The notes beneath the pieces were generated by a model, which was not told where the DNA came from, did not search any database, and was given only the letters and a program-made list of their open reading frames with translations. From Spirochaetota bacterium (lineage in GTDB: Bacteria; Spirochaetota; UBA4802; UBA5550): a stretch of 64,000 nucleotides of DNA. This document shows positions 11,019 through 35,930 of this stretch, piece by piece; position 1 is the stretch's first letter; each line of letters starts with the position of its first letter. The stretch covers positions 71,970-135,969 of the forward strand of contig JAFGJK010000065.1 in the NCBI GenBank assembly GCA_016929135.1, read 5' to 3'. The position numbers and the translations under genes were made by a program.

Positions 11019-11687
11019 TCAGCGGCCTGTGAGGAGGCCCGTTCTGAACAGGAATCCTACGGAGCCGCGGTAGTCGTAAAGGTTGGCGATGGTTCCCCTG
11101 CGCTTGATGAAGAGGTCAGTGAGGTAGTAGGAGGCGGTTCCGCCGACGACGAAATCGCTGTACTGTGTCAAGGGGAACCTGAACATGACGCCCCCGGTGA
11201 GCCCGAAGTTGCTGCCGTTGATATAGGGGAGGAGATTCGCGGTGTACCTCCACTCCGTGCTCTTCATGTGTCCCCGGGATGTCAGGGTCTGGGCGAAGAT
11301 GATGCCGGAGAGGAACTGCACGCTGCAAAAGCTCGTGTGGACCGCAGCGACCAGGCATAGGGGGATCTCCAGGGTGGTGGAGTACGTCCTTGTGTACGAT
11401 GGGTTGGTCGCGATGAGATCCCTGAACGACAACTCGCGGTAGGTGAAGTTGACGCCGCTGTGGATCCCCAGGAGTCCGGTGAACATGTATTCGACGATGA
11501 GCCCGCCGCCGTAGAACGGCTTCGCCTCCCATGCGCCGCTGCCGTGGCGCTGGTTCACATCGTTCATCCCGGCCTGGAGTGTGAAGCCGATGGAGGCGCC
11601 GGGAGTGTCGGACTCCCGCGCCATCAGAGGGGAGACGAGAAGGACCGACGCCAGTACAAGTATGAGCGCAAGCCCCGTGCGTTTCAT
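11019..11687 (-). CDS. outer-membrane beta-barrel protein (porin-family-like)
   Basis: Signal peptide MKRTGLALILVLASVLLVSPLMA. Alternating aromatic/Gly-rich beta-strand pattern through to the C-terminus. Confidence 0.7.
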   Translation of the reverse strand: MKRTGLALILVLASVLLVSPLMARESDTPGASIGFTLQAGMNDVNQRHGSGAWEAKPFYGGGLIVEYMFTGLLGIHSGVNFTYRELSFRDLIATNPSYTRTYSTTLEIPLCLVAAVHTSFCSVQFLSGIIFAQTLTSRGHMKSTEWRYTANLLPYINGSNFGLTGGVMFRFPLTQYSDFVVGGTASYYLTDLFIKRRGTIANLYDYRGSVGFLFRTGLLTGR

Positions 11688-11689
11688 GC

Positions 11690-12046
11690 TCAGTCTTTTT
11701 CTTCCATGATGCAGGTCCCGTTGAAGAGGGATCCCGGCTCGATGTGCAGGTCCGGCGTGATGATGTCGGCGTTGATCCTGCTTTTCTTGAACAGCTCTAT
11801 TTTCTGTTTTGCTTTGATCTTGCCGTTCAGACTGCCGCTCACCGATACCTCGTTCGCCTCGATGTCGGCGCTCACCGTGGCCTCTCGCCCGATGATCAGG
11901 CTTCCGTCTGTTTCGATCTTACCTTCGAAGAGCCCCTTTATCTTCAGCGAGTTCTTGAAGCGCAGCGTGCCCCGGAACGTAATATCGTCGGCGATCACCG
12001 TGTCGATCTTGTTTTCATCCTCGACTATTTCTTTAATATCCGCCAT
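11690..12046 (-). CDS. bactofilin (polymer-forming cytoskeletal protein)
   Basis: Start at the ATG at 12046 (MADIKEIV) with a GGAGA RBS. Beta-helical bactofilin repeat pattern: GTLRFKNSLKIKGLFEGKIETDGSLIIG...VSGSLNGKIKA...IEPGSLFNGTCIM. Confidence 0.85.
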   Translation of the reverse strand: MADIKEIVEDENKIDTVIADDITFRGTLRFKNSLKIKGLFEGKIETDGSLIIGREATVSADIEANEVSVSGSLNGKIKAKQKIELFKKSRINADIITPDLHIEPGSLFNGTCIMEEKD

Positions 12047-12169
12047 TTCCAGTCTCCGTGAGATGTATACGCCGGTTAGTATAGTGAGTGTGCCGGAATA
12101 TGTCAAACAAATTTGGCGGCCCTATTTAAAATGCTTGCTAACGGCAATGCTCCGGTGTAGCACTTGACC

Positions 12170-12514
12170 ATGGAAGAGCGCGGGGTTGATGCAATTCTTG
12201 AAATGGCCAACCGGCTGGGGCTGATGATCCGGGAGACAGAGGTCTACGGTGAATACCGGCGGTGCGCAGAGGCGCTGGAGTCCGATCCCGAGGCATCGGC
12301 CCTCCTGGCTCGCTACGAGGAGGCGCTCGGCGAGATCGAGCGGAAGCGGGGGGCGGCGGATATTGTCGAGCGCTACGAGCTCGAGGCGGCTCGGGATATG
12401 TCCGGGGAGATCAAAGACAGCCCGCTGATCATGGAGTACCTCGATGCCAAGCGTGACTACATCCGTTTCCTTGAGGAGATCCAGGAGGCGCTCGTTGAAC
12501 CTGATGAGCCGTGA
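12170..12514 (+). CDS. YlbF/YmcA-like (DUF964-type) helical protein
   Basis: ANRLGLMIRETEVYGEYRRCAEALESDPEASALLARY resembles the YlbF N-terminal helix pattern (AEMILQSETAENYRNCYKRLQEDEEA). ATG at 12170, two codons after the TTG of the ORF track. Confidence 0.65.
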   Translation: MEERGVDAILEMANRLGLMIRETEVYGEYRRCAEALESDPEASALLARYEEALGEIERKRGAADIVERYELEAARDMSGEIKDSPLIMEYLDAKRDYIRFLEEIQEALVEPDEP

Positions 12515-12654
12515 GATCCGCGGACCGCTCGAGCCATCATGCCATCCCGACCGCCCCGGGTTGGCGCCACTATTACGGTGATATCGAAACGATAGGGGAC
12601 CGTTTCGCCAGGGATGCCCGGGGCGTTGCTGACCCATAAAATTATTATTATCTC

Positions 12655-12683
12655 TTGACGGATTTATGGAAATATGCTATTAT
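12655..12683 (+). promoter_or_regulatory. near-consensus sigma70-type promoter of the 12716-18567 operon
   Basis: TTGACG (12655-12660), 17-nt spacer, TATTAT (12678-12683). 32 nt upstream of the ATG at 12716, within a short AT-rich patch. Confidence 0.65.
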
Positions 12684-12715
12684 CTTTTCAATAAAATCAA
12701 CAAAAGAGTAAGCCT

Positions 12716-13243
12716 ATGCAACCAGATCTTGACAAGTTGAAAAACAGGGTCCAGCAGAACAGGGACCTGGTGGCCCGCATCACGACCCATGTGCCGGGAT
12801 TCACCGGGTATGTGGAAAAGGCGGAACTCTACGACACCGACGCCATCGTCAGGGGATTTCTCGCCGACAGGATACAGGAGATGAAGGGGGAGATATCCTC
12901 TCTTTCGGCTGAGCTGGTACGGCGGGGAGAGCACGGCGCGGTCTCGGAGATGGAAACGCTCAACGTCGCCCTGGAGCGATTGTTCAAGAAATGCCGCCAC
13001 ACGGATTTCGGGAAGCCGGCGGAGCTGTCGCACGTCGCCATAGGCGACGAGGAGACGAACAGGCTCCTGGAGTACGACTGGAGGCTCATCTCGACGCTGG
13101 ATGAGATACTCCCGGCGGTGCGCGGTCTCGCCTCGGCTGATCCGGGCGCCCTGGGGGGTGCGATTCGGGACGTCGCCGCCAAGTTGAAAGAATTCGAGAA
13201 ATCCTTCGATGAGAGGAAAAACGTGATCCTGGAGGTTATATAG
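12716..13243 (+). CDS. hypothetical all-helical/coiled-coil-like protein (first gene of operon)
   Basis: 175 aa, charged and Leu/Glu/Arg-rich with heptad-like stretches (DRIQEMKGEISSLSAELVRRGE, AAKLKEFEKSFDERKNV). No family recognised by eye. The stop codon abuts the next ATG. Confidence 0.7.
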   Translation: MQPDLDKLKNRVQQNRDLVARITTHVPGFTGYVEKAELYDTDAIVRGFLADRIQEMKGEISSLSAELVRRGEHGAVSEMETLNVALERLFKKCRHTDFGKPAELSHVAIGDEETNRLLEYDWRLISTLDEILPAVRGLASADPGALGGAIRDVAAKLKEFEKSFDERKNVILEVI

Positions 13244-14374
13244 ATGGCACTGATAGATGTTGTCGACTGGAAGAACAAGCAGGGGGAGATCATCTACCGA
13301 TTCCCGGAGGGGGCGGTGTCCATGGGGGGGCAGCTCATCGTCATGGAACACCAGGAGGCGATCCTCTTCAAGGAGGGGCGTGCACTGGACGGCTTCGGCC
13401 CGGGCAGGCACACGCTGAAGACTGGGAACATCCCGATCCTCGAGAAGCTGGTAAACCTCCCATTCGGGGGGAAGACCCCGTTTCCGGCCGAGATCTATTT
13501 CATCAATAAAACCGAGATACCGAACTTGAAGTGGGGGACCAAGCAGCCGATACAGCTCCTGGATCCCACCTATAATATCGCGATACCCATCAGGGCCTTC
13601 GGCGCCTACTCGATCCGCATCAAAGACACCAAGTCGTTCCTCACCATGGCCATCGGCACATGGCAGGCCTTCACCACCGATGCCGTGGGCACGGCGCTGC
13701 GGGATCAGATCATCCTCCCCAAGCTCCAGGACCTCATCGCCGAGTTCATGCTGAAGCAGAACGTCACCATCCTGAAGCTCGCCGCCTACTACGACGAGAT
13801 CGGCACCTCCGGGAAGGCCAAGATCGCCGACGATTTCACCACCTTCGGCATCGAGCTGGTGCGCTTCGCGGTGGAATCCATCAACATTCCGGAAGAGGAC
13901 GAGTCGGTGAAGCGCCTGAAGAAGGCCCTGGCGGACAAGGCGGAGATCAACATCATGGGCGGCGACGATTACAGGATGCGCCGCACCTTCGACACCATGG
14001 AGAAGGCCGCCTCGAGCGAGGGGGGCGCCGGCAACATGATGGGGGCCGGTATGGGCTTCGCCATGGGCGGGCAGATGGGCCAGATGATGGGACAGCAGAT
14101 GGGCAGCGCCCAGGGCGGGCAGCAGGCCGGCGGCCAGGTGGCCTGCCCTCACTGCAACGCCATGAACCCGGCGAACGCGAAATTCTGCTCCTCCTGCGGC
14201 AAGGAGATGGTGGTGCAGAAGGAGTGCCCGGCCTGTAAGGCCAAGATGCCGGCGGACGCGAAGTTCTGCCCGTCCTGCGGCGCCAACATGCAGGGGGGGA
14301 AGTGCTCGAAGTGCGGTGCCGCGCTGGCGGCCGGCGCCAAGTTCTGCCCCGAATGCGGAGAGAAACAGGCATAA
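13244..14374 (+). CDS. SPFH/Band-7-like protein with Gly/Met-rich linker and three C-terminal zinc ribbons (B. subtilis YdjI-like)
   Basis: The N-terminus (VDWKNKQGEIIYRFPEG...FKEGRALDGFGPGRHTL...WGTKQPIQL) is colinear with YdjI as I recall it. Then GM-rich GAGNMMGAGMGFAMGGQMGQMMGQQMG, then three CxxC-x10-12-FCxxCG units (14144-14361). Confidence 0.85.
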   Translation: MALIDVVDWKNKQGEIIYRFPEGAVSMGGQLIVMEHQEAILFKEGRALDGFGPGRHTLKTGNIPILEKLVNLPFGGKTPFPAEIYFINKTEIPNLKWGTKQPIQLLDPTYNIAIPIRAFGAYSIRIKDTKSFLTMAIGTWQAFTTDAVGTALRDQIILPKLQDLIAEFMLKQNVTILKLAAYYDEIGTSGKAKIADDFTTFGIELVRFAVESINIPEEDESVKRLKKALADKAEINIMGGDDYRMRRTFDTMEKAASSEGGAGNMMGAGMGFAMGGQMGQMMGQQMGSAQGGQQAGGQVACPHCNAMNPANAKFCSSCGKEMVVQKECPACKAKMPADAKFCPSCGANMQGGKCSKCGAALAAGAKFCPECGEKQA

Positions 14375-14377
14375 CGG

Positions 14378-14980
14378 ATGCCGTCGCTCCAGTGCACATC
14401 CTGCGGCGCACCGGTGGAGATCAAAAACCGGTTCAGCAAGGTCTTTGTCTGCGGCTACTGCGGTACCCACCTGAGGGTCACCGATGAGGGACTCGATATC
14501 ACCGGCAAGCACCCGAAGCTCGCCGAGTTCCCGTCGATCCTCTCCGTCGGGTGCCGGGGGACAATCCTGGGGAAGCCCTTCACGGCCCTGGGAAGAATGC
14601 GGTACGACTATGGCGGCGGCCATTTCGACGAGTGGTTCCTGGAATACGACGGGGAGACGGCGTGGCTTTCCGAGGACGAGGGGACCTTCGCCCTCTATAC
14701 CGAAATGGAGGAGGCGGAGGAATTCCCCGACGTGACATCGGTGCGGGCCGGTCAGACCGTCGCCGTGGACGGCAGGAGGGTGATGATCAAGGAGAAGGGG
14801 AGGGCCAGGATTGCCGGCGGGGAGGGGGAGCTCTCCTTCTATATGGAACCCGGCACCGAGGTGGTATATATCGACGGCATCTCCGAGGGGAAAAAGATCT
14901 CCATAGAATGCACCGAGGAGGAGATCGAGCTCTTCACGGGAAGGGTGCTGCTGAAACGGGACATTGTCGTGGAGGGATAA
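14378..14980 (+). CDS. zinc-ribbon + DUF4178-like domain protein
   Basis: N-terminal CTSCGAPV...CGYCG zinc ribbon. The domain GKPFTALGRMRYDYGGGHFDEWFLEYDGETAWLSEDEG matches my recollection of DUF4178 and is paralogous to the next gene. Confidence 0.8.
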   Translation: MPSLQCTSCGAPVEIKNRFSKVFVCGYCGTHLRVTDEGLDITGKHPKLAEFPSILSVGCRGTILGKPFTALGRMRYDYGGGHFDEWFLEYDGETAWLSEDEGTFALYTEMEEAEEFPDVTSVRAGQTVAVDGRRVMIKEKGRARIAGGEGELSFYMEPGTEVVYIDGISEGKKISIECTEEEIELFTGRVLLKRDIVVEG

Positions 14981-16382
14981 TCACGTGCCCCAGGAGTCGG
15001 GTCAGATAAAACCGCAGAAATGCGGCGGCTGCGGGGCCGATCTCGTGAAGAGTTACCGTTCCCACTATGACGCCGAGGAGGAGGAGACCGTCACGATCCC
15101 GGTGGCGAAGTGCGTCTCCTGCGGCAGGGAATACGACCAGCATACCGAAGAGTACTACAGGGTCTTCGCCGACAGCTTCATTCAGGACAAGGATAACTCG
15201 GCATTCAAGCTCGGGCTCAAGGGGAGCATCAGCGGCGTCGGGTACGAGATCATCGGGCGCCTACGCTACCAGGACGAGGACGAGTACGAACGCGCCGTAT
15301 GGGACGAATGGGTGGCAGTTTCCGACGAGGGGAGCTACCACTACTTCGTGGAGGAGGAGGGGGAGGTCTATTCCTACGAGGAATACGTGCCCTCCTCCAT
15401 AGACCTTGAAGCAGGACCCGACAGCTTCGAGTTCGAGGGACGGACAATATCAAAGCGGAACGCCTATACCGGCCGCATCGTCTTCGCCGAGGGCGAGCTC
15501 CCCTGGAGGCCGGCGATCGGGGAGCCGGTGCGATGCTACGACTTCAAGAAGGACGGCGTTCATTTCACCATCGAGCATTCGGAGGACGAGGTCTCCATCA
15601 CCAGGGGCGAGAAGATAGAGTACGACACGGTGATCGGCGCCTTCGGCGGCGAGTCCGAAAAGGACAAGTACGCCCGCACCATGGGCAGGCGGAAGAGCTA
15701 TAAGAGGAGGGCGGCCCTGTACCTCGCCGCGTCGGTCCTCTCCCTGGCGGCAGCGGTGATGAACTGCGTCACCGGCGACGAGGTGCCGGGCGTGCTGACC
15801 GCCTCGCAGATCCTCTCGTCAAACCAGTACCAGTCCGAAGGGGGGAGCGCCAGCTACTTCAGCCAGGTGCTCTACGGGCCCTTCAGGATCGAACAGGGCG
15901 ACAGTCTGTACGATGTCACCGTCTTCGCCGATACCTCGGCGGAGCCGCTCCGGCTCGGATGGGAGTCCTTCAGGCTCATGCTGGTGAAGGAGGAGCGGCT
16001 TGCCCGGGTGACCGGCGCGGGGTCGGACCCCGCATCACTCAGGGCGCTTTTCAGTGACATCGACTCCTTCGGGGAGCCGGTGGAATCCTACGCGGTGACC
16101 GGGGACTTCTGGGATGAGGAGGGGCGCGACGACGAGGGATACTGGCACGAGAACGACCTCTCCGCATCCTCCTCCTTCGTGCTTGACGAGCCGGGGAACT
16201 ATTATGCATACCTGGAGCTGTACAACAACCAGCCCAGGAACCCGGCATCGGTGAGGTTCAGGATCGAGCGCACCAGCAGCTACCGCTACTACCTGGTGCT
16301 GGTGGCCGTATTTCTGGTGCTGATGTTCGTGAACAGGAGCAAGGCCAGGAGCTACAACGAGCTCCCCTTCATGATGGCCTGA
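14964..16382 (+). CDS. zinc-ribbon + DUF4178-like domain membrane protein
   Basis: CGGCGADL...CVSCG ribbon. GVGYEIIGRLRYQDEDEYERAVWDEWVAVSDEGSYHYF domain. TM helices AALYLAASVLSLAAAVMNC and YYLVLVAVFLVLMFV. An alternative GTG start at 14985 has a GGAGGG RBS. Confidence 0.8.
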   Translation: MSWRDNHVPQESGQIKPQKCGGCGADLVKSYRSHYDAEEEETVTIPVAKCVSCGREYDQHTEEYYRVFADSFIQDKDNSAFKLGLKGSISGVGYEIIGRLRYQDEDEYERAVWDEWVAVSDEGSYHYFVEEEGEVYSYEEYVPSSIDLEAGPDSFEFEGRTISKRNAYTGRIVFAEGELPWRPAIGEPVRCYDFKKDGVHFTIEHSEDEVSITRGEKIEYDTVIGAFGGESEKDKYARTMGRRKSYKRRAALYLAASVLSLAAAVMNCVTGDEVPGVLTASQILSSNQYQSEGGSASYFSQVLYGPFRIEQGDSLYDVTVFADTSAEPLRLGWESFRLMLVKEERLARVTGAGSDPASLRALFSDIDSFGEPVESYAVTGDFWDEEGRDDEGYWHENDLSASSSFVLDEPGNYYAYLELYNNQPRNPASVRFRIERTSSYRYYLVLVAVFLVLMFVNRSKARSYNELPFMMA

Positions 16383-16407
16383 GTTTTTCTGCGGAGGTGA
16401 CGGTGCA

Positions 16408-16602
16408 ATGATTCGAAGCCTACTGGTGGTGCTCCTGCTGGGCGGCGGCGTCTTCGCCCTGTCTCAGTGGCACGTGGGATACCCGCGCGCCGGAATACGG
16501 TACATCACCTCCCAGAAAGAGGAGCGGCGATCCATCAGGCCCGGGAGCCATTACTATTACGGGAGCCACTACGGTACCAGGGGCTTCCGGGGCGGAAAGT
16601 AG
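16408..16602 (+). CDS. small single-TM protein with Tyr/Gly-rich tail
   Basis: 64 aa. GGAGGTGA RBS. TM segment LLVVLLLGGGVFAL. Tail GSHYYYGSHYGTRGFRGGK. Sits inside the operon. Confidence 0.5.
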   Translation: MIRSLLVVLLLGGGVFALSQWHVGYPRAGIRYITSQKEERRSIRPGSHYYYGSHYGTRGFRGGK

Positions 16603-16659
16603 GATCGAGGGGGTGCGGGGCACTTGTCCGCACCCGATACAGCAGGCAAGGAGGATTGT

Positions 16660-17028
16660 ATGAACTGGAACACGGTACTGAGCGGCATCATAGACACCGC
16701 CATCTTTTCCTTCGTGGGCATCGTGATGATGGCGATAGGATTCCTGCTCATCTGCCTCATCTCCCCGTTCTCCATAAAAAAGGAGATCGAGGACGATCAG
16801 AACACTGCGCTGGGGATCATCATCGGCTCGGTGATCCTGGGGATCTCCATAATCATCGCTTCGGTGATAGCATCGCCGTCGACCCCCGCCCAGGAGCCGC
16901 CGCAGGCGGTCCAGGTCGAGCAGCAGGAGGCGCAGCCGGCGCCGGCCCAGGGCAAGGCGACGCAACCGGTAAAGATGAAGGCGCCGCAGCCGGTACAGAC
17001 GAAGACCCCGGCGGCGCCGGCACAGTAG
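16660..17028 (+). CDS. DUF350 (YjfL-like) membrane protein with Pro/Gln/Ala-rich tail
   Basis: ATG at 16660 after a GGAGGA RBS. Two or three TM segments (AIFSFVGIVMMAIGFLLICLI; ALGIIIGSVILGISIIIASVI) with the KKEIEDDQNTA loop typical of DUF350. Confidence 0.78.
   Translation: MNWNTVLSGIIDTAIFSFVGIVMMAIGFLLICLISPFSIKKEIEDDQNTALGIIIGSVILGISIIIASVIASPSTPAQEPPQAVQVEQQEAQPAPAQGKATQPVKMKAPQPVQTKTPAAPAQ
16957..17004 (+). repeat. tandem 24-nt coding repeat (2 copies, 20/24 identical)
   Basis: GCGACGCAACCGGTAAAGATGAAG / GCGCCGCAGCCGGTACAGACGAAG, encoding ATQPVKMK/APQPVQTK in the tail of the DUF350 protein. Confidence 0.8.
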
Positions 17029-17040
17029 CCGCATCGCTCC

Positions 17041-18567
17041 GTGAAAGAATCATATACCCGTGCCGAGGGGAGGGTGCTCCTCTTCTCGGTCTTCGTGCTG
17101 TCCCTCTGCGGGATCACCTACGAGCTTGTCCTGGGTTCCCTGGCCACCTATCTCCTGGGAAACCCGGTACTGCAGTACTCCATCACCATCGGCGTGTTCT
17201 TGAGCTCCATGGGGCTCGGTTCGTTCCTGTCCAAGTACATCACCGGGAACCTGGCGGCCGCCTTCGTACGGATCGAGATAGCCCTGGGACTCGTCGGTGG
17301 ACTCTCGGTGATGGTGCTGAGCGCCCTCTTCTCCTTCTCCTCCTCCTACTACCTGCTCCAGGTCTTCTTCCTGGTGGTGATCGGCGCCATGGTGGGGCTC
17401 GAGATACCGCTGCTCACCAGGATGCTGAAGAGCTCCGGCTCTCTCAAGGATGTTCTGGCGGGGGTTCTCTCCCTGGACTACCTGGGGGGACTCGCGGGAT
17501 CGCTCCTCTTCCCGCTCCTCCTCTTTCCCTACGCGGGGAGACTCCTCACCAGCATCCTCATCGGCATCGCCAACGTTCTGGTGGCGCTGCTGGTGATGGC
17601 CAGGGTGCAATATGAAGGGAAGAGCCGCGCTGACGTCGCCGTGGCGGTCGTCGCGGTGCTGGCCCTGGGGATGATCGCCTTCAGGTCCGAGCAGATCGGC
17701 ACGATCTTCCAGAAGCGCCTCTACTACGACGACATAGTCTACACCAGGCGGTCCCGCTACCAGGAGATCGTGCTCACCAGGAACGAGGACGATTTCCGTC
17801 TCTACCTCTCCGGATCGCTGCAGTTCTCCACGGTGGACGAATACCGCTACCACGAGATGCTGGTTTACCCGCCGCTCCTCCTCTGCCGCGGTGAGCCCGG
17901 GGAGGTGCTGGTGATGGGGGGCGGCGACGGCCTGGCGGTGCGTGACATACTGAAGTCGGACCGGGTGAGGTCGGTAACGCTGGTGGAGCTGGACAGGGCG
18001 ATGATATCTCTGGCCACGGGGAATCCCTCGATGGTGCGAATCAACAGGGGCTCCCTCTCGGACGGGAGGGTTCGCGTGGTGGTCGAGGACGCCTACAGTT
18101 ACCTGGTTCGAGAGCGGAAGCGGTTCGACGTGATCGTCGCCGACTTCCCGGATCCCCACGACGAGACAACGGCGAAGCTCTACACCACGGAATTTTTCGG
18201 TCTGGTGAAGAGGTCGCTGAAACCGGGGGGTATCTTCGTCACGCAGTCCACGTCACCTCTTTTCGCCTCCAGCGCCTTCTGGTGCATCAACGCCACCATG
18301 AAGCAGGTCTTCGCAGCGGTGGTTCCTTACCACGCCTACGTCCCCACCTTCGGGGACTGGGGGTTCAACATCGCATCGTCGGGGCCGATCGATCCCGGGG
18401 CCATGAGGGAACCCCCCGGGGGCTGCCGTTTTTTTTCCAGGGATGCCTTTACCGCGGCGATGCACTTCACCGAGGATATCGCGGAACGCGAGGTGAAGAT
18501 CAACACCTTCAACAGGCCGGTGCTGTACACCTACTATCTGAAGGGATGGAGGATCAGCGTCGATTGA
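17041..18567 (+). CDS. membrane-anchored spermidine-synthase-like polyamine aminopropyltransferase homolog
   Basis: 508 aa. About 7 N-terminal TM helices, then a SpeE-like domain (VLVMGGGDGLAVRDILK, VIVADFPDPHDETTAKLYTTEFF, GGIFVTQSTSP). GTG start. Confidence 0.85.
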   Translation: MKESYTRAEGRVLLFSVFVLSLCGITYELVLGSLATYLLGNPVLQYSITIGVFLSSMGLGSFLSKYITGNLAAAFVRIEIALGLVGGLSVMVLSALFSFSSSYYLLQVFFLVVIGAMVGLEIPLLTRMLKSSGSLKDVLAGVLSLDYLGGLAGSLLFPLLLFPYAGRLLTSILIGIANVLVALLVMARVQYEGKSRADVAVAVVAVLALGMIAFRSEQIGTIFQKRLYYDDIVYTRRSRYQEIVLTRNEDDFRLYLSGSLQFSTVDEYRYHEMLVYPPLLLCRGEPGEVLVMGGGDGLAVRDILKSDRVRSVTLVELDRAMISLATGNPSMVRINRGSLSDGRVRVVVEDAYSYLVRERKRFDVIVADFPDPHDETTAKLYTTEFFGLVKRSLKPGGIFVTQSTSPLFASSAFWCINATMKQVFAAVVPYHAYVPTFGDWGFNIASSGPIDPGAMREPPGGCRFFSRDAFTAAMHFTEDIAEREVKINTFNRPVLYTYYLKGWRISVD

Positions 18568-18573
18568 ACTCGG

Positions 18574-18762
18574 TCAGATCGCCTTCTTGATCCTGCCGGA
18601 GCGGATGCAGCTGGTACAGACGTATCTGCGGACGGGCCTCTTGTCTTCCATAATCCTGATCTTCTTGACATTGGGCCGCCATACCTTCGCGGTTTTTTTA
18701 TTGGAGTGGCTCACGTTGTTTCCGAACTGGACCGATTTGCCGCATATTTCACATTTCGCCAT
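18574..18762 (-). CDS. rpmB: 50S ribosomal protein L28
   Basis: MAKCEICGKSVQFGNNVSHSNKKTAKVWRPNVKKIRI... is the canonical L28 sequence, in the Cys-containing (zinc-ribbon) form. Confidence 0.92.
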   Translation of the reverse strand: MAKCEICGKSVQFGNNVSHSNKKTAKVWRPNVKKIRIMEDKRPVRRYVCTSCIRSGRIKKAI

Positions 18763-18895
18763 GGTTGTTTCCTCGCCCTTGATCTGGAGTTGACACTCTT
18801 GAATGTATCGTCTTTTTTTTCAAGTATTTTATCGGAGCGGTACGATATTTTGCTTGTAATCGCCGGGCATCGCCGGTCCCATTTATCACAGGGTA

Positions 18896-19108
18896 ATGGA
18901 GGAGTATCGATCGATGGAAATAGACGAGAAAACCAGCATGGCGGACCTGATGGGCAGAACCCAGGCGCTGTCGAAGGTATTCAAGAAATATGGCCTGGAC
19001 TGCCTCACCTGCCGCGGCCTGGCCGAGGAGACGGTGGCGCAGCTGGCGGTGCGCAACGGCCTTGACGTGAAGGCCTTTACCGAGGAAATCCGCAGGGTCC
19101 TGGGCTGA
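18896..19108 (+). CDS. DUF1858 / hybrid-cluster-protein-associated redox-disulfide-like small protein
   Basis: 70 aa. MADLMGRTQALSKVFKKYGLDCLTCRG with a CxxC motif, as in the DUF1858 family. The start could be an internal ATG. Confidence 0.65.
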   Translation: MEEYRSMEIDEKTSMADLMGRTQALSKVFKKYGLDCLTCRGLAEETVAQLAVRNGLDVKAFTEEIRRVLG

Positions 19109-19114
19109 TGCCCC

Positions 19115-19696
19115 GTGAGCACCATCCGTGTCATCGCGGGGTCCCTGAAGGGGAGAGTGATCCCCTTTTCCCTGAAGCGCTTCGGGAACGCCGACATCAC
19201 CCCGCAGAAGATCAAGGAGGCTTTTTTCTCGATCGTCGGTGACATCGGGGGGGCGGTGTTCCTGGATCTCTGCGCCTGCTCCGGGCAGATGGGGATCGAG
19301 GCCCTGAGCCGCGGCGCTGGCCTGGCGGTGATGAACGACCGGGACCCCCGCCGGTCCCGCTTTCTCAGGGAGGCACTGCGTGAACTGGACGTGGGGGATC
19401 GCGCCCTGGTGTTGCAGGAGCGCTATTCCCGCGCGCTCTCACTGCTACGGGAGCGGGAGATCGCCGCGGACATCATCTACGCCGATCCCCCCTACCCGGA
19501 GGGCCGCGACACCTCCATTTACGATACGCTCCTTTCGGCGGTGGCCGAGAGCGGGGTGCTGAAGACCCTGGGGGTTCTGGCGGTACAGCACCGGAGCGGC
19601 CTGGCGATGCGGGAGCGCGTCAGCGATCTCGTTCTCGTTGAGACCAGGGAATACGGGTCCAATGCGGTCTCCTTCTACCGGCGTGCGGAATCCTGA
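19115..19696 (+). CDS. rsmD: 16S rRNA (guanine966-N2)-methyltransferase RsmD
   Basis: IRVIAGSLKGR N-terminus, SAM motif FLDLCACSGQMGIEALSRGA, catalytic DPPY (IIYADPPYPEG). GTG start. Confidence 0.85.
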   Translation: MSTIRVIAGSLKGRVIPFSLKRFGNADITPQKIKEAFFSIVGDIGGAVFLDLCACSGQMGIEALSRGAGLAVMNDRDPRRSRFLREALRELDVGDRALVLQERYSRALSLLREREIAADIIYADPPYPEGRDTSIYDTLLSAVAESGVLKTLGVLAVQHRSGLAMRERVSDLVLVETREYGSNAVSFYRRAES

Positions 19697-29961: not shown

Positions 29962-31086
29962 TTACAGTACGGTGGTGCCGAGTAGATGCCCGATGGCGAA
30001 GGTCACGGCGGCGGTCGCCAGGCCGAAGGCCATCTGCCGCAGTCCGGAGAGGATCGGGTTCCGTCCCGTCATCAGGGTGATGGCGGCGCCGATGGCGAAG
30101 AGCCCCAGGGTGCTGGACACGGCGCTGGCGATGATGCCGGCGGTGCCGGTGAGGAATACGTAGGGGATCACAGGGACGACGGCTCCCGCCGTGAATAGGA
30201 CGAAGGAGGTGAGAGCCGCCTCCCAGGCCGACCCGCCGAGCTCCTTGGGATCGATGCCGAGCTCCTCCCGGGCCAGGGTGTCCAGCGCCGTTGCCGGATC
30301 CGAGATGAGCCTGTCGGCCATGGCGCGGGCGGTTGCCGCGTCGATCCCCTTGGCCTGGTAGATCAGCGCAAGCTCCTCCACCTCCTCCTCCGGGATCTCC
30401 GCCAGCTCCCGTTTCTCCACGTCCAGCTGGTGGGTGTAGAGCTCCCGGGAACTCTGCACCGAAAGCCATTCTCCCAGTGCCATGGAGAGTGCCCCGGCCA
30501 GCAGCCCCGCCAGCCCGGTCATCAGGATGGCGCCGGAGGAGACGCCGGCACCGGCAACGCCCATCACCAGGCAGAAGACCGAGACCAGCCCGTCGTTCGC
30601 CCCCAGAACCGCGGCGCGGAGAGCATTGCCGCCGGCGGCGCGGTGCCGCCCCTCGAAGCGTGCCAGGTCGCTCCCCTGGAGGCCCCCTGAGGTGCGCGTC
30701 AGGTAGCCGAATACGCGGGCATGAGACTGCTCGTCCGCCGGCATGTTCACGCCCTCGGCGTCTGCCTGGCCCGCGTAGCCTGCGGCGGCGGAACGTTCGA
30801 TCGACGCGATCGTGGGGAGTATGAACGCCGGCCCGAACCTGCCGGCCATCCACCGGAAGATCCTGGTGCGCAGAGAGGGCCTGAAGGCCGGTATTGCGGC
30901 GCCGGTCTCCCTGAGCCTCTCCTTCCAGAATTCGGCGTGCCTCCGTTCGGTTTCCATGAGTTTCCGGTAGATTTCCGCCAGATCGGCGTTCTCCTCCGCC
31001 TCGGCGAGGCGTTCGTACAGGGTGATGGCCTCCTGTTCCGCCCTGAGGTTCTGTCGGTAGCGCTTGATGTCGTCCTGTTCCGTCAT
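29962..31086 (-). CDS. VIT1/CCC1-family iron/manganese transporter with N-terminal ferritin-like domain
   Basis: N-terminal ferritin/rubrerythrin-like helices (EQEAITLYERLAE...METERRHAEFW). C-terminal VIT motif ANDGLVSVFCLVMGVAGA and several TM helices. Confidence 0.85.
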   Translation of the reverse strand: MTEQDDIKRYRQNLRAEQEAITLYERLAEAEENADLAEIYRKLMETERRHAEFWKERLRETGAAIPAFRPSLRTRIFRWMAGRFGPAFILPTIASIERSAAAGYAGQADAEGVNMPADEQSHARVFGYLTRTSGGLQGSDLARFEGRHRAAGGNALRAAVLGANDGLVSVFCLVMGVAGAGVSSGAILMTGLAGLLAGALSMALGEWLSVQSSRELYTHQLDVEKRELAEIPEEEVEELALIYQAKGIDAATARAMADRLISDPATALDTLAREELGIDPKELGGSAWEAALTSFVLFTAGAVVPVIPYVFLTGTAGIIASAVSSTLGLFAIGAAITLMTGRNPILSGLRQMAFGLATAAVTFAIGHLLGTTVL

Positions 31087-35267: not shown

Positions 35268-35930
35268 TTACGATGCCCTTCTGATCGATCCCGGATTCAG
35301 GCAGCCCTTGATGTCCTTCAGCGCCCGCCGGTAGTTGATCTCCGCCCGCTTCCAGTTGATCAACCTCCAGAAGGCCATGATGTAGTCGGGCCTCCTGTTC
35401 TGGTATGTCAGGTAGTAGGCGTGCTCCCACACGTCCAGGCCGATCACCGGGATGAGCCCCTCCATGATGGGGCTGTCCTGATTCGCCGTGGAGTGCACCA
35501 CCAGTTCCCCCAGGGCGTTCACCGAGAGCCACGCCCATCCGGATCCGAAGCGCTGTGCCGCGGCATTCTCGAACTCCTTCCGGAAGTTTTCGATGGAGCC
35601 GAAGCGCTTCACCAGTGCATCGGCGAATTCGCCGGCAGGGGCGCTCCCCTCATGGCCCCCCAGTATCTCCCAGAAGAGCGAGTGGTTCAGGTGTCCGCCC
35701 CCGTTGTTACGGACGTCGTTCCTGATCTCCTCGGGCAGGCTTGCCAGGTTCGCCAGCAGGTGCTCCAGCGACAGGTCGAATAGATGCGGGTGCTTTTCCA
35801 GGGCCGCGTTCAGCTTCGTGACGTAGGTACCGTGGTGCTTGCCGTGGTGGATCTCCATGGTCTTGGCGTCGATATACGGTTCCAGTGCGTTATATGCGTA
35901 GGGCAGGTCGGGTAATGAATGTCTGCTCAT
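35268..35930 (-). CDS. Fe/Mn-family superoxide dismutase
   Basis: [28 protein letters not shown] ... [20 protein letters not shown] are canonical SOD motifs. AAGGAGG RBS. Confidence 0.93.

Follow-up and report, generated by a model that had tools for sequence, protein, structure and literature searches.

We analysed a stretch of 64,000 nucleotides (nt) from a Spirochaetota bacterium (GenBank assembly GCA_016929135.1, contig JAFGJK010000065.1, positions 71,970 to 135,969 of the forward strand), hereafter the window, in whose numbering all coordinates are given and whose GC content is 59.6%. On its plus strand, seven co-directional open reading frames (ORFs), g1 to g7, span positions 12716–18567 and encode, in this order, a helical protein without a Pfam model, a cytoplasmic SPFH protein, two zinc-ribbon proteins with DUF4178 domains, a membrane microprotein, a DUF350 protein and an aminopropyltransferase fused to transmembrane (TM) helices. 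We describe these genes as a candidate membrane-homeostasis operon that lacks PspA, follow its first gene into other phyla, and weigh what the combination may do.

The seven genes are tightly packed. The start codon of g2 comes directly after the g1 stop (0 nt) and g3 begins 3 nt after g2; the g3/g4 junction measures +4 nt if g4 starts at GTG 14985, g4/g5 measures 25 nt, g5/g6 measures 57 nt if g6 starts at ATG 16660, and g6/g7 measures 12 nt, or 45 nt if g7 starts at GTG 17074. Shine–Dalgarno-like motifs favour the chosen starts of g4 (GGAGGG, 8 nt upstream of GTG 14985) and g6 (AAGGAGG, preceding ATG 16660), the alternatives being TTG 14964 and TTG 16624, respectively; for g7, such motifs favour neither GTG 17041 nor GTG 17074 over the other. 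Ahead of the unit, 33 nt before g1, lies a sigma-70-like promoter candidate (12655–12683, plus strand; TTGACG-N17-(TG)C-TATTAT) that matches 10 of 12 consensus positions, carries the TG extension, sits in an AT-rich island and is the only good match of its kind upstream of the operon. Matches of that quality are slightly enriched (4 found versus 2.6 expected in shuffles), and the site, as a consensus match alone, is suggestive of the operon's promoter. Downstream, convergent rpmB (18574–18762, minus strand) closes the unit. An Rfam search of positions 11500–19500 with E values up to 0.1 returned no riboswitch or other RNA leader, and the entire window contains no tRNA gene and no Rfam family at the gathering threshold. 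An earlier note on this DNA, made from the letters alone, had listed the same seven ORFs, coordinates and junctions and had called them almost certainly a single transcription unit, a judgement that we share because the gaps are only 0–57 nt, Shine–Dalgarno-like motifs are present, one promoter-like site precedes them and rpmB converges on their end. A 647-amino-acid (aa) ORF on the minus strand (12680–14623), antisense to g1 and g2 and longer than either, was rejected by gene selection on third-position GC; no gene is annotated there in the public annotations of the contig or of a relative (L002), and we regard it as a high-GC artefact.

The first gene, g1 (12716–13243, plus strand), encodes a soluble, all-alpha protein of 175 aa that is 100% identical to JXA20_07910. 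It matches nothing in Pfam. In NCBIfam it aligns with the Leptospira family LIMLP_15305_fam (NF047596) from residues 6–172 to model positions 5–174 of 175, at 51.3 bits against a cut-off of 210, which makes it a predicted homologue within the LIMLP_15305 superfamily, below the equivalog level. Its AlphaFold2 (AF2) model has a predicted local distance difference test (pLDDT) score of 88.6 and contains five helices of 21–35 residues each (5–25, 35–69, 73–95, 111–140 and 143–174). A Foldseek search of this model against the PDB gave nothing below an E value of 0.1, none of its 550 matches reaching 0.001, and a profile search of PDB chain sequences gave no match. Among 1.84 billion representative proteins, a profile search found 1283 g1-family clusters at 50% identity with E ≤ 1e-3 and 566 with E ≤ 1e-10. 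Most members are stand-alone proteins of about 170 aa, none of 40 sampled members matches Pfam over the g1 domain, and the spirochaete and distant subfamilies are homologous to each other (hhalign probability 100%, E = 8e-41). The label of a helical orphan, which the earlier note had given to g1, does not hold for a family of at least 1283 clusters that is a regular upstream partner of Band_7_1/zinc-ribbon genes.

The next two genes encode soluble proteins with zinc ribbons. The product of g2 (13244–14374, plus strand; 376 aa) is a cytoplasmic SPFH protein that matches Band_7_1 over residues 17–221 (7.4e-49) and DZR (3e-24). Its C-terminus carries three CxxC-x10-CxxC zinc ribbons (residues 298–374), separated from the Band_7_1 domain by a Gly/Met/Gln-rich, low-complexity linker, and it contains no TM helix or hydrophobic segment. 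Publications describe Bacillus subtilis YdjI/SamI as having this same build, with an SPFH domain, a low-complexity linker and a zinc finger at the C-terminus but no membrane anchor, and the comparison of g2 with YdjI, already drawn from the sequence alone, was correct. The product of g3 (14378–14980, plus strand; 200 aa) has an N-terminal zinc ribbon (CxxC-x15-CxxC) followed by DUF4178 (1.3e-15, residues 57–191) and no TM helix, and it is 58–84% identical across 46 related loci. No solved structural relatives of g2 or g3 were found.

The membrane proteins begin with g4 (14985–16382, plus strand), a bitopic-loop membrane protein of 465 aa that has, like g3, a zinc ribbon and a DUF4178 domain (3.3e-14). 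A cytoplasmic part composed of these two elements is followed by a TM helix (244–262), an extracytoplasmic part of about 170 aa and a second TM helix (431–449); Cys13, Cys16, Cys43 and Cys46 are invariant in 47 orthologues. The AF2 model, built from a 47-sequence alignment (pLDDT 88.3), shows two beta-rich domains with a long TM helix between them. Its outer domain is a predicted beta-sandwich for which Foldseek gave weak, generic jelly-roll or CBM-like matches with target-normalised TM-scores of at most 0.37. In the microprotein g5 (16408–16602, plus strand; 64 aa), a single TM helix at the N-terminus precedes a basic/aromatic tail that ends in FRGGK. The protein lacks a cysteine that could form a lipobox and matches neither Pfam nor NCBIfam; because orthologues in about 40 loci keep a similar length and motif (…RKSxRxGS…YY…FRGGK), we take it for a real gene. 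The last of the three, g6 (16660–17028, plus strand; 122 aa), is a DUF350 protein of the YjfL type (5e-14) with two TM helices and a Pro/Gln-rich, low-complexity tail, and it resembles Escherichia coli YjfL weakly (phmmer E = 0.0018). The tail is poorly conserved, as tblastn alignments in relatives often cover only the first 50–90 residues; it differs between orthologues in both length and sequence, whereas the two TM helices are kept.

The final gene, g7 (17041–18567, plus strand), encodes a protein of 508 aa (497 from GTG 17074) in which about seven N-terminal TM helices precede an aminopropyltransferase domain. It scores 581.9 bits against NF002956 (PRK03612 type; cut-off 472), with residues 8–504 on model positions 17–519 of 522, and 1.2e-36 against Spermine_synth, which makes it, as far as sequence can tell, a full-length member of the NF002956 polyamine aminopropyltransferase family and a predicted enzyme. 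Among solved structures, it comes closest to thermospermine synthase 6bq2 (8e-41) and to polyamine aminopropyltransferases of thermophiles. The motifs DExxYHE, GGG[DE]G and DxxDP are the donor-binding and catalytic motifs of SpeE enzymes, and the DExxYHE, GGGDG and DxxDP of g7 align with their counterparts in 6bq2 and in aminopropyltransferase 7xif. The topology of the four membrane proteins, with two TM helices in g4, one in g5, two in g6 and about seven in g7, agrees with that described from the sequence alone.

None of the seven proteins matches PspA_IM30 in Pfam. The same scan, which the earlier note had suggested as a check, did return Band_7_1, DUF4178 (twice), DUF350 and Spermine_synth, and it gave no match to the Pfam families of PspB, PspC, PspF, LiaF or Toastrack, or to CesT or DUF2170, among the seven proteins. 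Twenty further window ORFs of suitable size contain no PspA either, and when all 690 ORFs from the six reading frames of the window were searched by phmmer, E. coli PspA, YjfJ and YjfI each drew no match. A small PspA hidden Markov model (HMM) gave no match in the window or in the 46 related spirochaete loci (10 kb either side), although it readily picked out the PspA of two unrelated loci. The claim that the operon has no recognisable PspA is therefore borne out in the seven proteins, the window ORFs and the 46 loci, and the gene content is not that of a classical PspA-centred Psp operon, as it includes neither PspA_IM30/Vipp1 nor the partners PspB, PspC, PspF, LiaF and Toastrack.

Sampling one genome per species, we found 58 loci that encode a g1 relative, 46 of which belong to Spirochaetota or ‘Leptospirales’, Leptospira included. 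In these 46, g1 is 37–71% identical to the protein described here (38% in the Leptospira loci L047 and L048), and every contig of sufficient length carries g1 to g7 in unchanged order; L048, from Leptospira biflexa, holds the beginning of the block. Most of them also share the flanks of the operon: an outer-membrane beta-barrel gene, bactofilin and YlbF upstream, and rpmB, DUF1858 and rsmD downstream. In the window, the upstream flank comprises the beta-barrel gene (minus), the bactofilin gene (minus) and a Com_YlbF-like gene (plus) at 11019–12514, the last of which ends 201 nt before g1. The seven-gene block is intact with those flanks absent in L024, L031, L036, L039 and L047 (Leptospira). 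Conservation of gene order, which had been named as a check on the operon, is thus seen in 46 loci, five of them with differing flanks.

A peroxide transcriptome of Leptospira interrogans (PMC7567364) lists a predicted non-coding RNA overlapping LIMLP_15310, rh4345, as up-regulated (log2 fold change 1.77 at 1 mM H2O2) and LIMLP_15315 as significantly down-regulated. LIMLP_15305 gives its name to the family that g1 matches weakly; LIMLP_15310 and LIMLP_15315 may correspond to g2 and g3, and these data were not used as evidence.

Outside Spirochaetota, g1 keeps its SPFH partner. Seventeen non-spirochaete contexts have readable downstream DNA, and in 16 of them a Band_7_1 gene lies within two genes downstream of g1, both in genome loci (L050, L052, L054, L055 and L057–L061) and on metagenome contigs (L064, L065, L067 and L069–L072). 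Represented among them are Coatesbacteria, Acidobacteriota and Chloroflexota, as well as two contigs, L071 and L072, that are apparently archaeal, with neighbouring genes of archaeal type (LSM, Hjc and class I LysRS). The Band_7_1 partners carry zinc ribbons wherever their C-terminal part is readable, and 14 of the 16 pairs have no PspA nearby. The exception, L051, instead holds a fusion of a zinc ribbon, a linker and g1, of the same kind as in the protein P0219. In both, L051:9365–10522 from a Blastocatellia genome and P0219 from an apparently archaeal contig, the g1 domain follows a zinc ribbon at the N-terminus and a linker that is Pro-rich or of low complexity, an arrangement that mirrors the linker and zinc ribbon at the C-terminus of the SPFH partner. 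The g1 family therefore pairs near-constantly with YdjI-type SPFH genes, in bacteria and apparently in archaea.

Four of these sister clusters carry a further gene or domain between or on the two partners. In L064, the g1 protein P0216 has a DUF4178 domain fused to its C-terminus and is followed by PspA_IM30 and then by Band_7_1/DZR; in L065/L066, a g1 with a disordered tail is followed by PspA_IM30 (6e-42) and Band_7_1/DZR (3e-64); in L052, a zinc-ribbon/Toastrack (DUF4097) protein lies between g1 and Band_7_1; and in L067, the order is g1, a stand-alone DUF4178 gene and Band_7_1. All four thus place a protein of the g1 family upstream of the same type of SPFH gene, two of them with DUF4178 and two with a true PspA, but they lack DUF350 and the TM-aminopropyltransferase of the spirochaete operon. 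Because PspA and Toastrack count among the hallmarks of Psp systems (Ravi et al. 2024, PMC11237479), their presence in sister arrangements makes the g1/SPFH pair part of the Psp network by context, and the label ‘Psp-like’ that the earlier note had chosen gains support from the g1 and g2 homologues that flank PspA_IM30 (L064 and L065) or Toastrack (L052). The Toastrack gene (L052:7736–8926) is from Pyrinomonadaceae, and a gene of similar size occupies L054, the Pfam scan covering L052 only. At L065:5929–7863, the gene immediately upstream of g1-PspA-Band_7_1 encodes a predicted membrane protein of the DUF2207 type, and a 589-aa, weakly DUF2207-like protein (E = 0.006) lies directly after g1-DUF4178-Band_7_1 at L067:9186–10955; proteins of this type may be another recurrent membrane partner. 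As far as we found in the literature searched, arrangements of g1, then PspA, Toastrack or DUF4178, then Band_7_1 have no earlier description.

The closest described relative of the whole operon is that of Shewanella oneidensis, SO_3762–SO_3767, with the order Ctha_1186 lipoprotein, DUF350, TM-Spermine_synth, CesT/Tir, PspA, DUF4178 and RHH, which exemplifies a ‘second major group’ of PspA-CesT/Tir operons; in related polyamine operon variants, a band-7 protein takes the place of the CesT-PspA dyad (Ravi et al. 2024, PMC11237479). Common to both loci are the TM-fused Spermine_synth, DUF350 and DUF4178, as well as the sub-order of a small exported protein, DUF350 and TM-SpeE, which corresponds here to g5-g6-g7, with g5, a conserved small protein that is either exported or membrane-spanning, in the position of the Ctha_1186 lipoprotein but without a lipobox cysteine. 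CesT-PspA-DUF4178 of Shewanella stands opposite g1-SPFH-DUF4178-DUF4178 here: there are two DUF4178 proteins, both with a zinc ribbon at the N-terminus, and one of them is anchored in the membrane and has a domain outside. DUF350 has 2 TM helices instead of 4 to 8, and the RHH regulator is missing. Measured against that group, the locus has the multi-TM Spermine_synth protein, DUF350 and DUF4178, and it lacks the CesT/Tir-PspA dyad. The CesT fold is alpha/beta, unlike the predicted all-alpha g1, and searches for CesT and YjfI were negative. The M. tuberculosis cluster Rv2597–Rv2601, which we take to be a PspA-less DUF4178/DUF350/TM-SpeE cluster, was left out of the evidence.

In B. subtilis, YdjI/SamI is a soluble SPFH protein that two membrane proteins of the same operon, the zinc-ribbon protein YdjG and YdjH, recruit to the membrane (PMC8581546; bioRxiv 10.64898/2026.02.06.704340). 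It affects membrane fluidity, recruits PspA and is needed for PspA membrane foci (PMC8581546), and some SamGHI phenotypes are independent of PspA (bioRxiv 10.64898/2026.02.06.704340; PMC8581546). Like the pspA-ydjGHI (samGHI) operon, the locus described here combines an SPFH protein of this build with a zinc-ribbon protein that has a TM segment and is a possible membrane recruiter, YdjG there and g4 here, although YdjG carries an NTF2-like domain and g4 carries DUF4178. PspA and the TPM-domain protein YdjH are absent here, whereas the B. subtilis operon as described has no g1-like gene and no polyamine enzyme. The E. coli operon yjfIJKLMC likewise links DUF350 (YjfL) and a polyamine-modifying enzyme to Psp-family components, but it contains the PspA paralogue YjfJ and the CesT-like YjfI and has no SPFH, DUF4178 or g1 gene. 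Its enzyme YjfC is an ATP-grasp peptide-spermidine ligase, whereas g7 is a predicted aminopropyltransferase; the RefSeq name of YjfC (MG1655 4413028–4414191, L063), ‘peptide--spermidine ligase’, indicates that it conjugates rather than synthesises spermidine.

Judged by its gene content, the locus is best classified as a PspA-less variant of a computationally catalogued class of membrane-stress operons. The novelty that the earlier note had claimed for the combination was overstated, as 7TM-spermine-synthase/DUF350/DUF4178 operons with Psp components, and PspA-less variants with a band-7 protein, had already been described (PMC11237479). The new findings concern the g1 family: how large it is and which genes surround it, that it is paired almost constantly with YdjI-type SPFH genes, and that it can be fused to DUF4178.

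Elsewhere in the window, and without a link to the operon, lie two genes that concern iron or oxidative stress. One (29962–31086, minus strand) fuses a rubrerythrin/EncFtn-like domain to a VIT1 iron-transporter domain; the other (35268–35930, minus strand) is an ORF whose N-terminus resembles, by eye, Fe/Mn superoxide dismutase.

The explanation that we favour, with a probability of about one half, is that one operon joins two widespread modules into a membrane-homeostasis system that works without PspA. The first module would comprise g1, g2 and g3, that is, a helical partner, an SPFH protein of the YdjI/SamI type and a soluble zinc-ribbon/DUF4178 protein, and the second g4 to g7, that is, an anchored DUF4178 protein, the microprotein, DUF350 and the 7TM aminopropyltransferase. 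In the proposed mechanism, g4, possibly with g5 and g6, would anchor a soluble complex of g1, g2 and g3 at the inner face of the membrane, much as SamG and SamH hold SamI in B. subtilis, with g1 as the adaptor between the SPFH oligomer formed by g2 and the DUF4178 domains of g3 and g4. The assembled scaffold might then enclose, organise, gate or regulate g7, which would use decarboxylated S-adenosylmethionine to aminopropylate a polyamine or other amine acceptor at the membrane, and the extracytoplasmic beta-sandwich of g4 is a candidate sensor of the state of the envelope. How the proteins interact physically, which way regulation runs, what g7 acts on and how stress comes in are all inferred from the analogy with YdjI/SamI together with the fusion and neighbourhood evidence. 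The suggestion in the earlier note that the operon could couple the sensing of membrane damage to local polyamine synthesis is likewise speculative.

Several points weigh against this explanation. Because most Spirochaetota loci also share their flanks, part of the conserved order is simple relatedness, and the sample of non-spirochaete contexts is small (17) and non-random. As nothing of known function resembles g1 in structure or sequence, its proposed adaptor role is drawn from context. The Pfam scan of 20 window ORFs of plausible size contained no gene for an S-adenosylmethionine decarboxylase that could supply the aminopropyl donor. The PspA searches covered the 64-kb window and the related loci, and a PspA elsewhere in the genome is possible.

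This last point leads to the strongest rival, in which the operon is an accessory arm of a classical PspA-dependent response: g2 would recruit to the membrane a PspA whose gene lies elsewhere, and this PspA would be the effector. The requirement of YdjI for PspA membrane foci (PMC8581546) speaks for it, as do L064 and L065, where PspA separates the g1-like gene from Band_7_1. Ravi et al. moreover suggest that abbreviated band-7 operons may work with a distant PspA, and they report that some spirochaetes have pspABC. No PspA, however, lies in the window or within 10 kb of the operon in the 46 loci, the g1/Band_7_1 pairs of other phyla mostly do without a nearby one (14 of 16), and the SamI phenotypes in B. 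subtilis are partly PspA-independent. We consider this rival doubtful but credible, and it is compatible with much of the two-module explanation.

Less probable still is that g7 is a housekeeping spermidine or thermospermine synthase and that the genes upstream are unrelated neighbours kept by synteny. In favour of this account, g7 scores above the curated aminopropyltransferase cut-off and keeps the catalytic motifs, and the wider synteny is common to most related loci; but the junctions of 0–57 nt behind one promoter-like site and the survival of the block where its flanks change argue for a unit. Beyond the spirochaetes, DUF4178, DUF350 and 7TM-Spermine_synth co-occur in unrelated Proteobacteria and DUF4178 is fused to g1, and a fusion to seven TM helices is unnecessary for cytosolic polyamine synthesis. 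These observations make the housekeeping account improbable.

It is very improbable that g1 is itself a cryptic, highly diverged PspA/ESCRT-III-like remodeller, which would give the operon a PspA equivalent after all. Its soluble, all-helical nature and its place directly upstream of a YdjI-like SPFH gene would fit, and PspA, where present (L064 and L065), adjoins g1 homologues; in those same loci, however, a true PspA is encoded alongside the g1 homologue, a point in favour of a different role for g1. We rejected the assignment because hhalign gave 0.2–0.3% probability against PspA profiles, no PspA, Vipp1 or ESCRT-III chain occurs among the 50 best Foldseek matches listed, the profile search of the PDB was negative and the five helices of 21–35 residues differ from the long hairpin of PspA. 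The PspAA domain, described as having three helices plus a sheet of four strands (Ravi et al. 2024, PMC11237479), is likewise an unlikely identity for the predicted all-helical g1. An anti-phage defence or conflict system can be dismissed with near certainty: some conflict systems do contain SPFH domains and uncharacterised proteins rich in zinc ribbons, and g7 weakly matches mad2 in PADLOC (7e-16, over the methyltransferase fold), but that match covers only the generic Rossmann fold, six of the seven proteins have no PADLOC match, and the operon keeps a stable chromosomal place beside housekeeping genes across the whole order with no signs of mobile elements.

A bolder extension of the two-module explanation, which we offer as speculation and think rather unlikely as it stands, is that the g1 family is an ancient, so far unrecognised partner of cytoplasmic zinc-ribbon SPFH proteins in bacteria and archaea, forming with them and DUF4178 proteins a PspA-independent machine for organising the membrane, to which PspA, Toastrack or a polyamine enzyme would attach as interchangeable clients, the client in spirochaetes being the membrane aminopropyltransferase. 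If this were true, g7 would modify an amine associated with the membrane or envelope, or export its product, rather than supply bulk cytosolic polyamine.

Two widespread kinds of protein, the cytoplasmic SPFH proteins of the YdjI/SamI type and the membrane-fused aminopropyltransferases, still await a functional explanation, and the link between Psp components and polyamine enzymes has so far been a genomic correlation. The present locus points to g1, a family that numbers 1283 or more clusters at 50% identity, as a partner of these SPFH proteins that had gone unremarked, and it casts PspA as an optional insert and not as the system's core. It also points to DUF4178 as the bridge to the DUF350/aminopropyltransferase module, because DUF4178 is fused to g1 in P0216 and stands between g1 and Band_7_1 in L067. 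As the operon is present in Leptospira, the hypothesis would be approachable in a cultivable organism, in a genus that includes pathogens in which envelope stress matters for infection.

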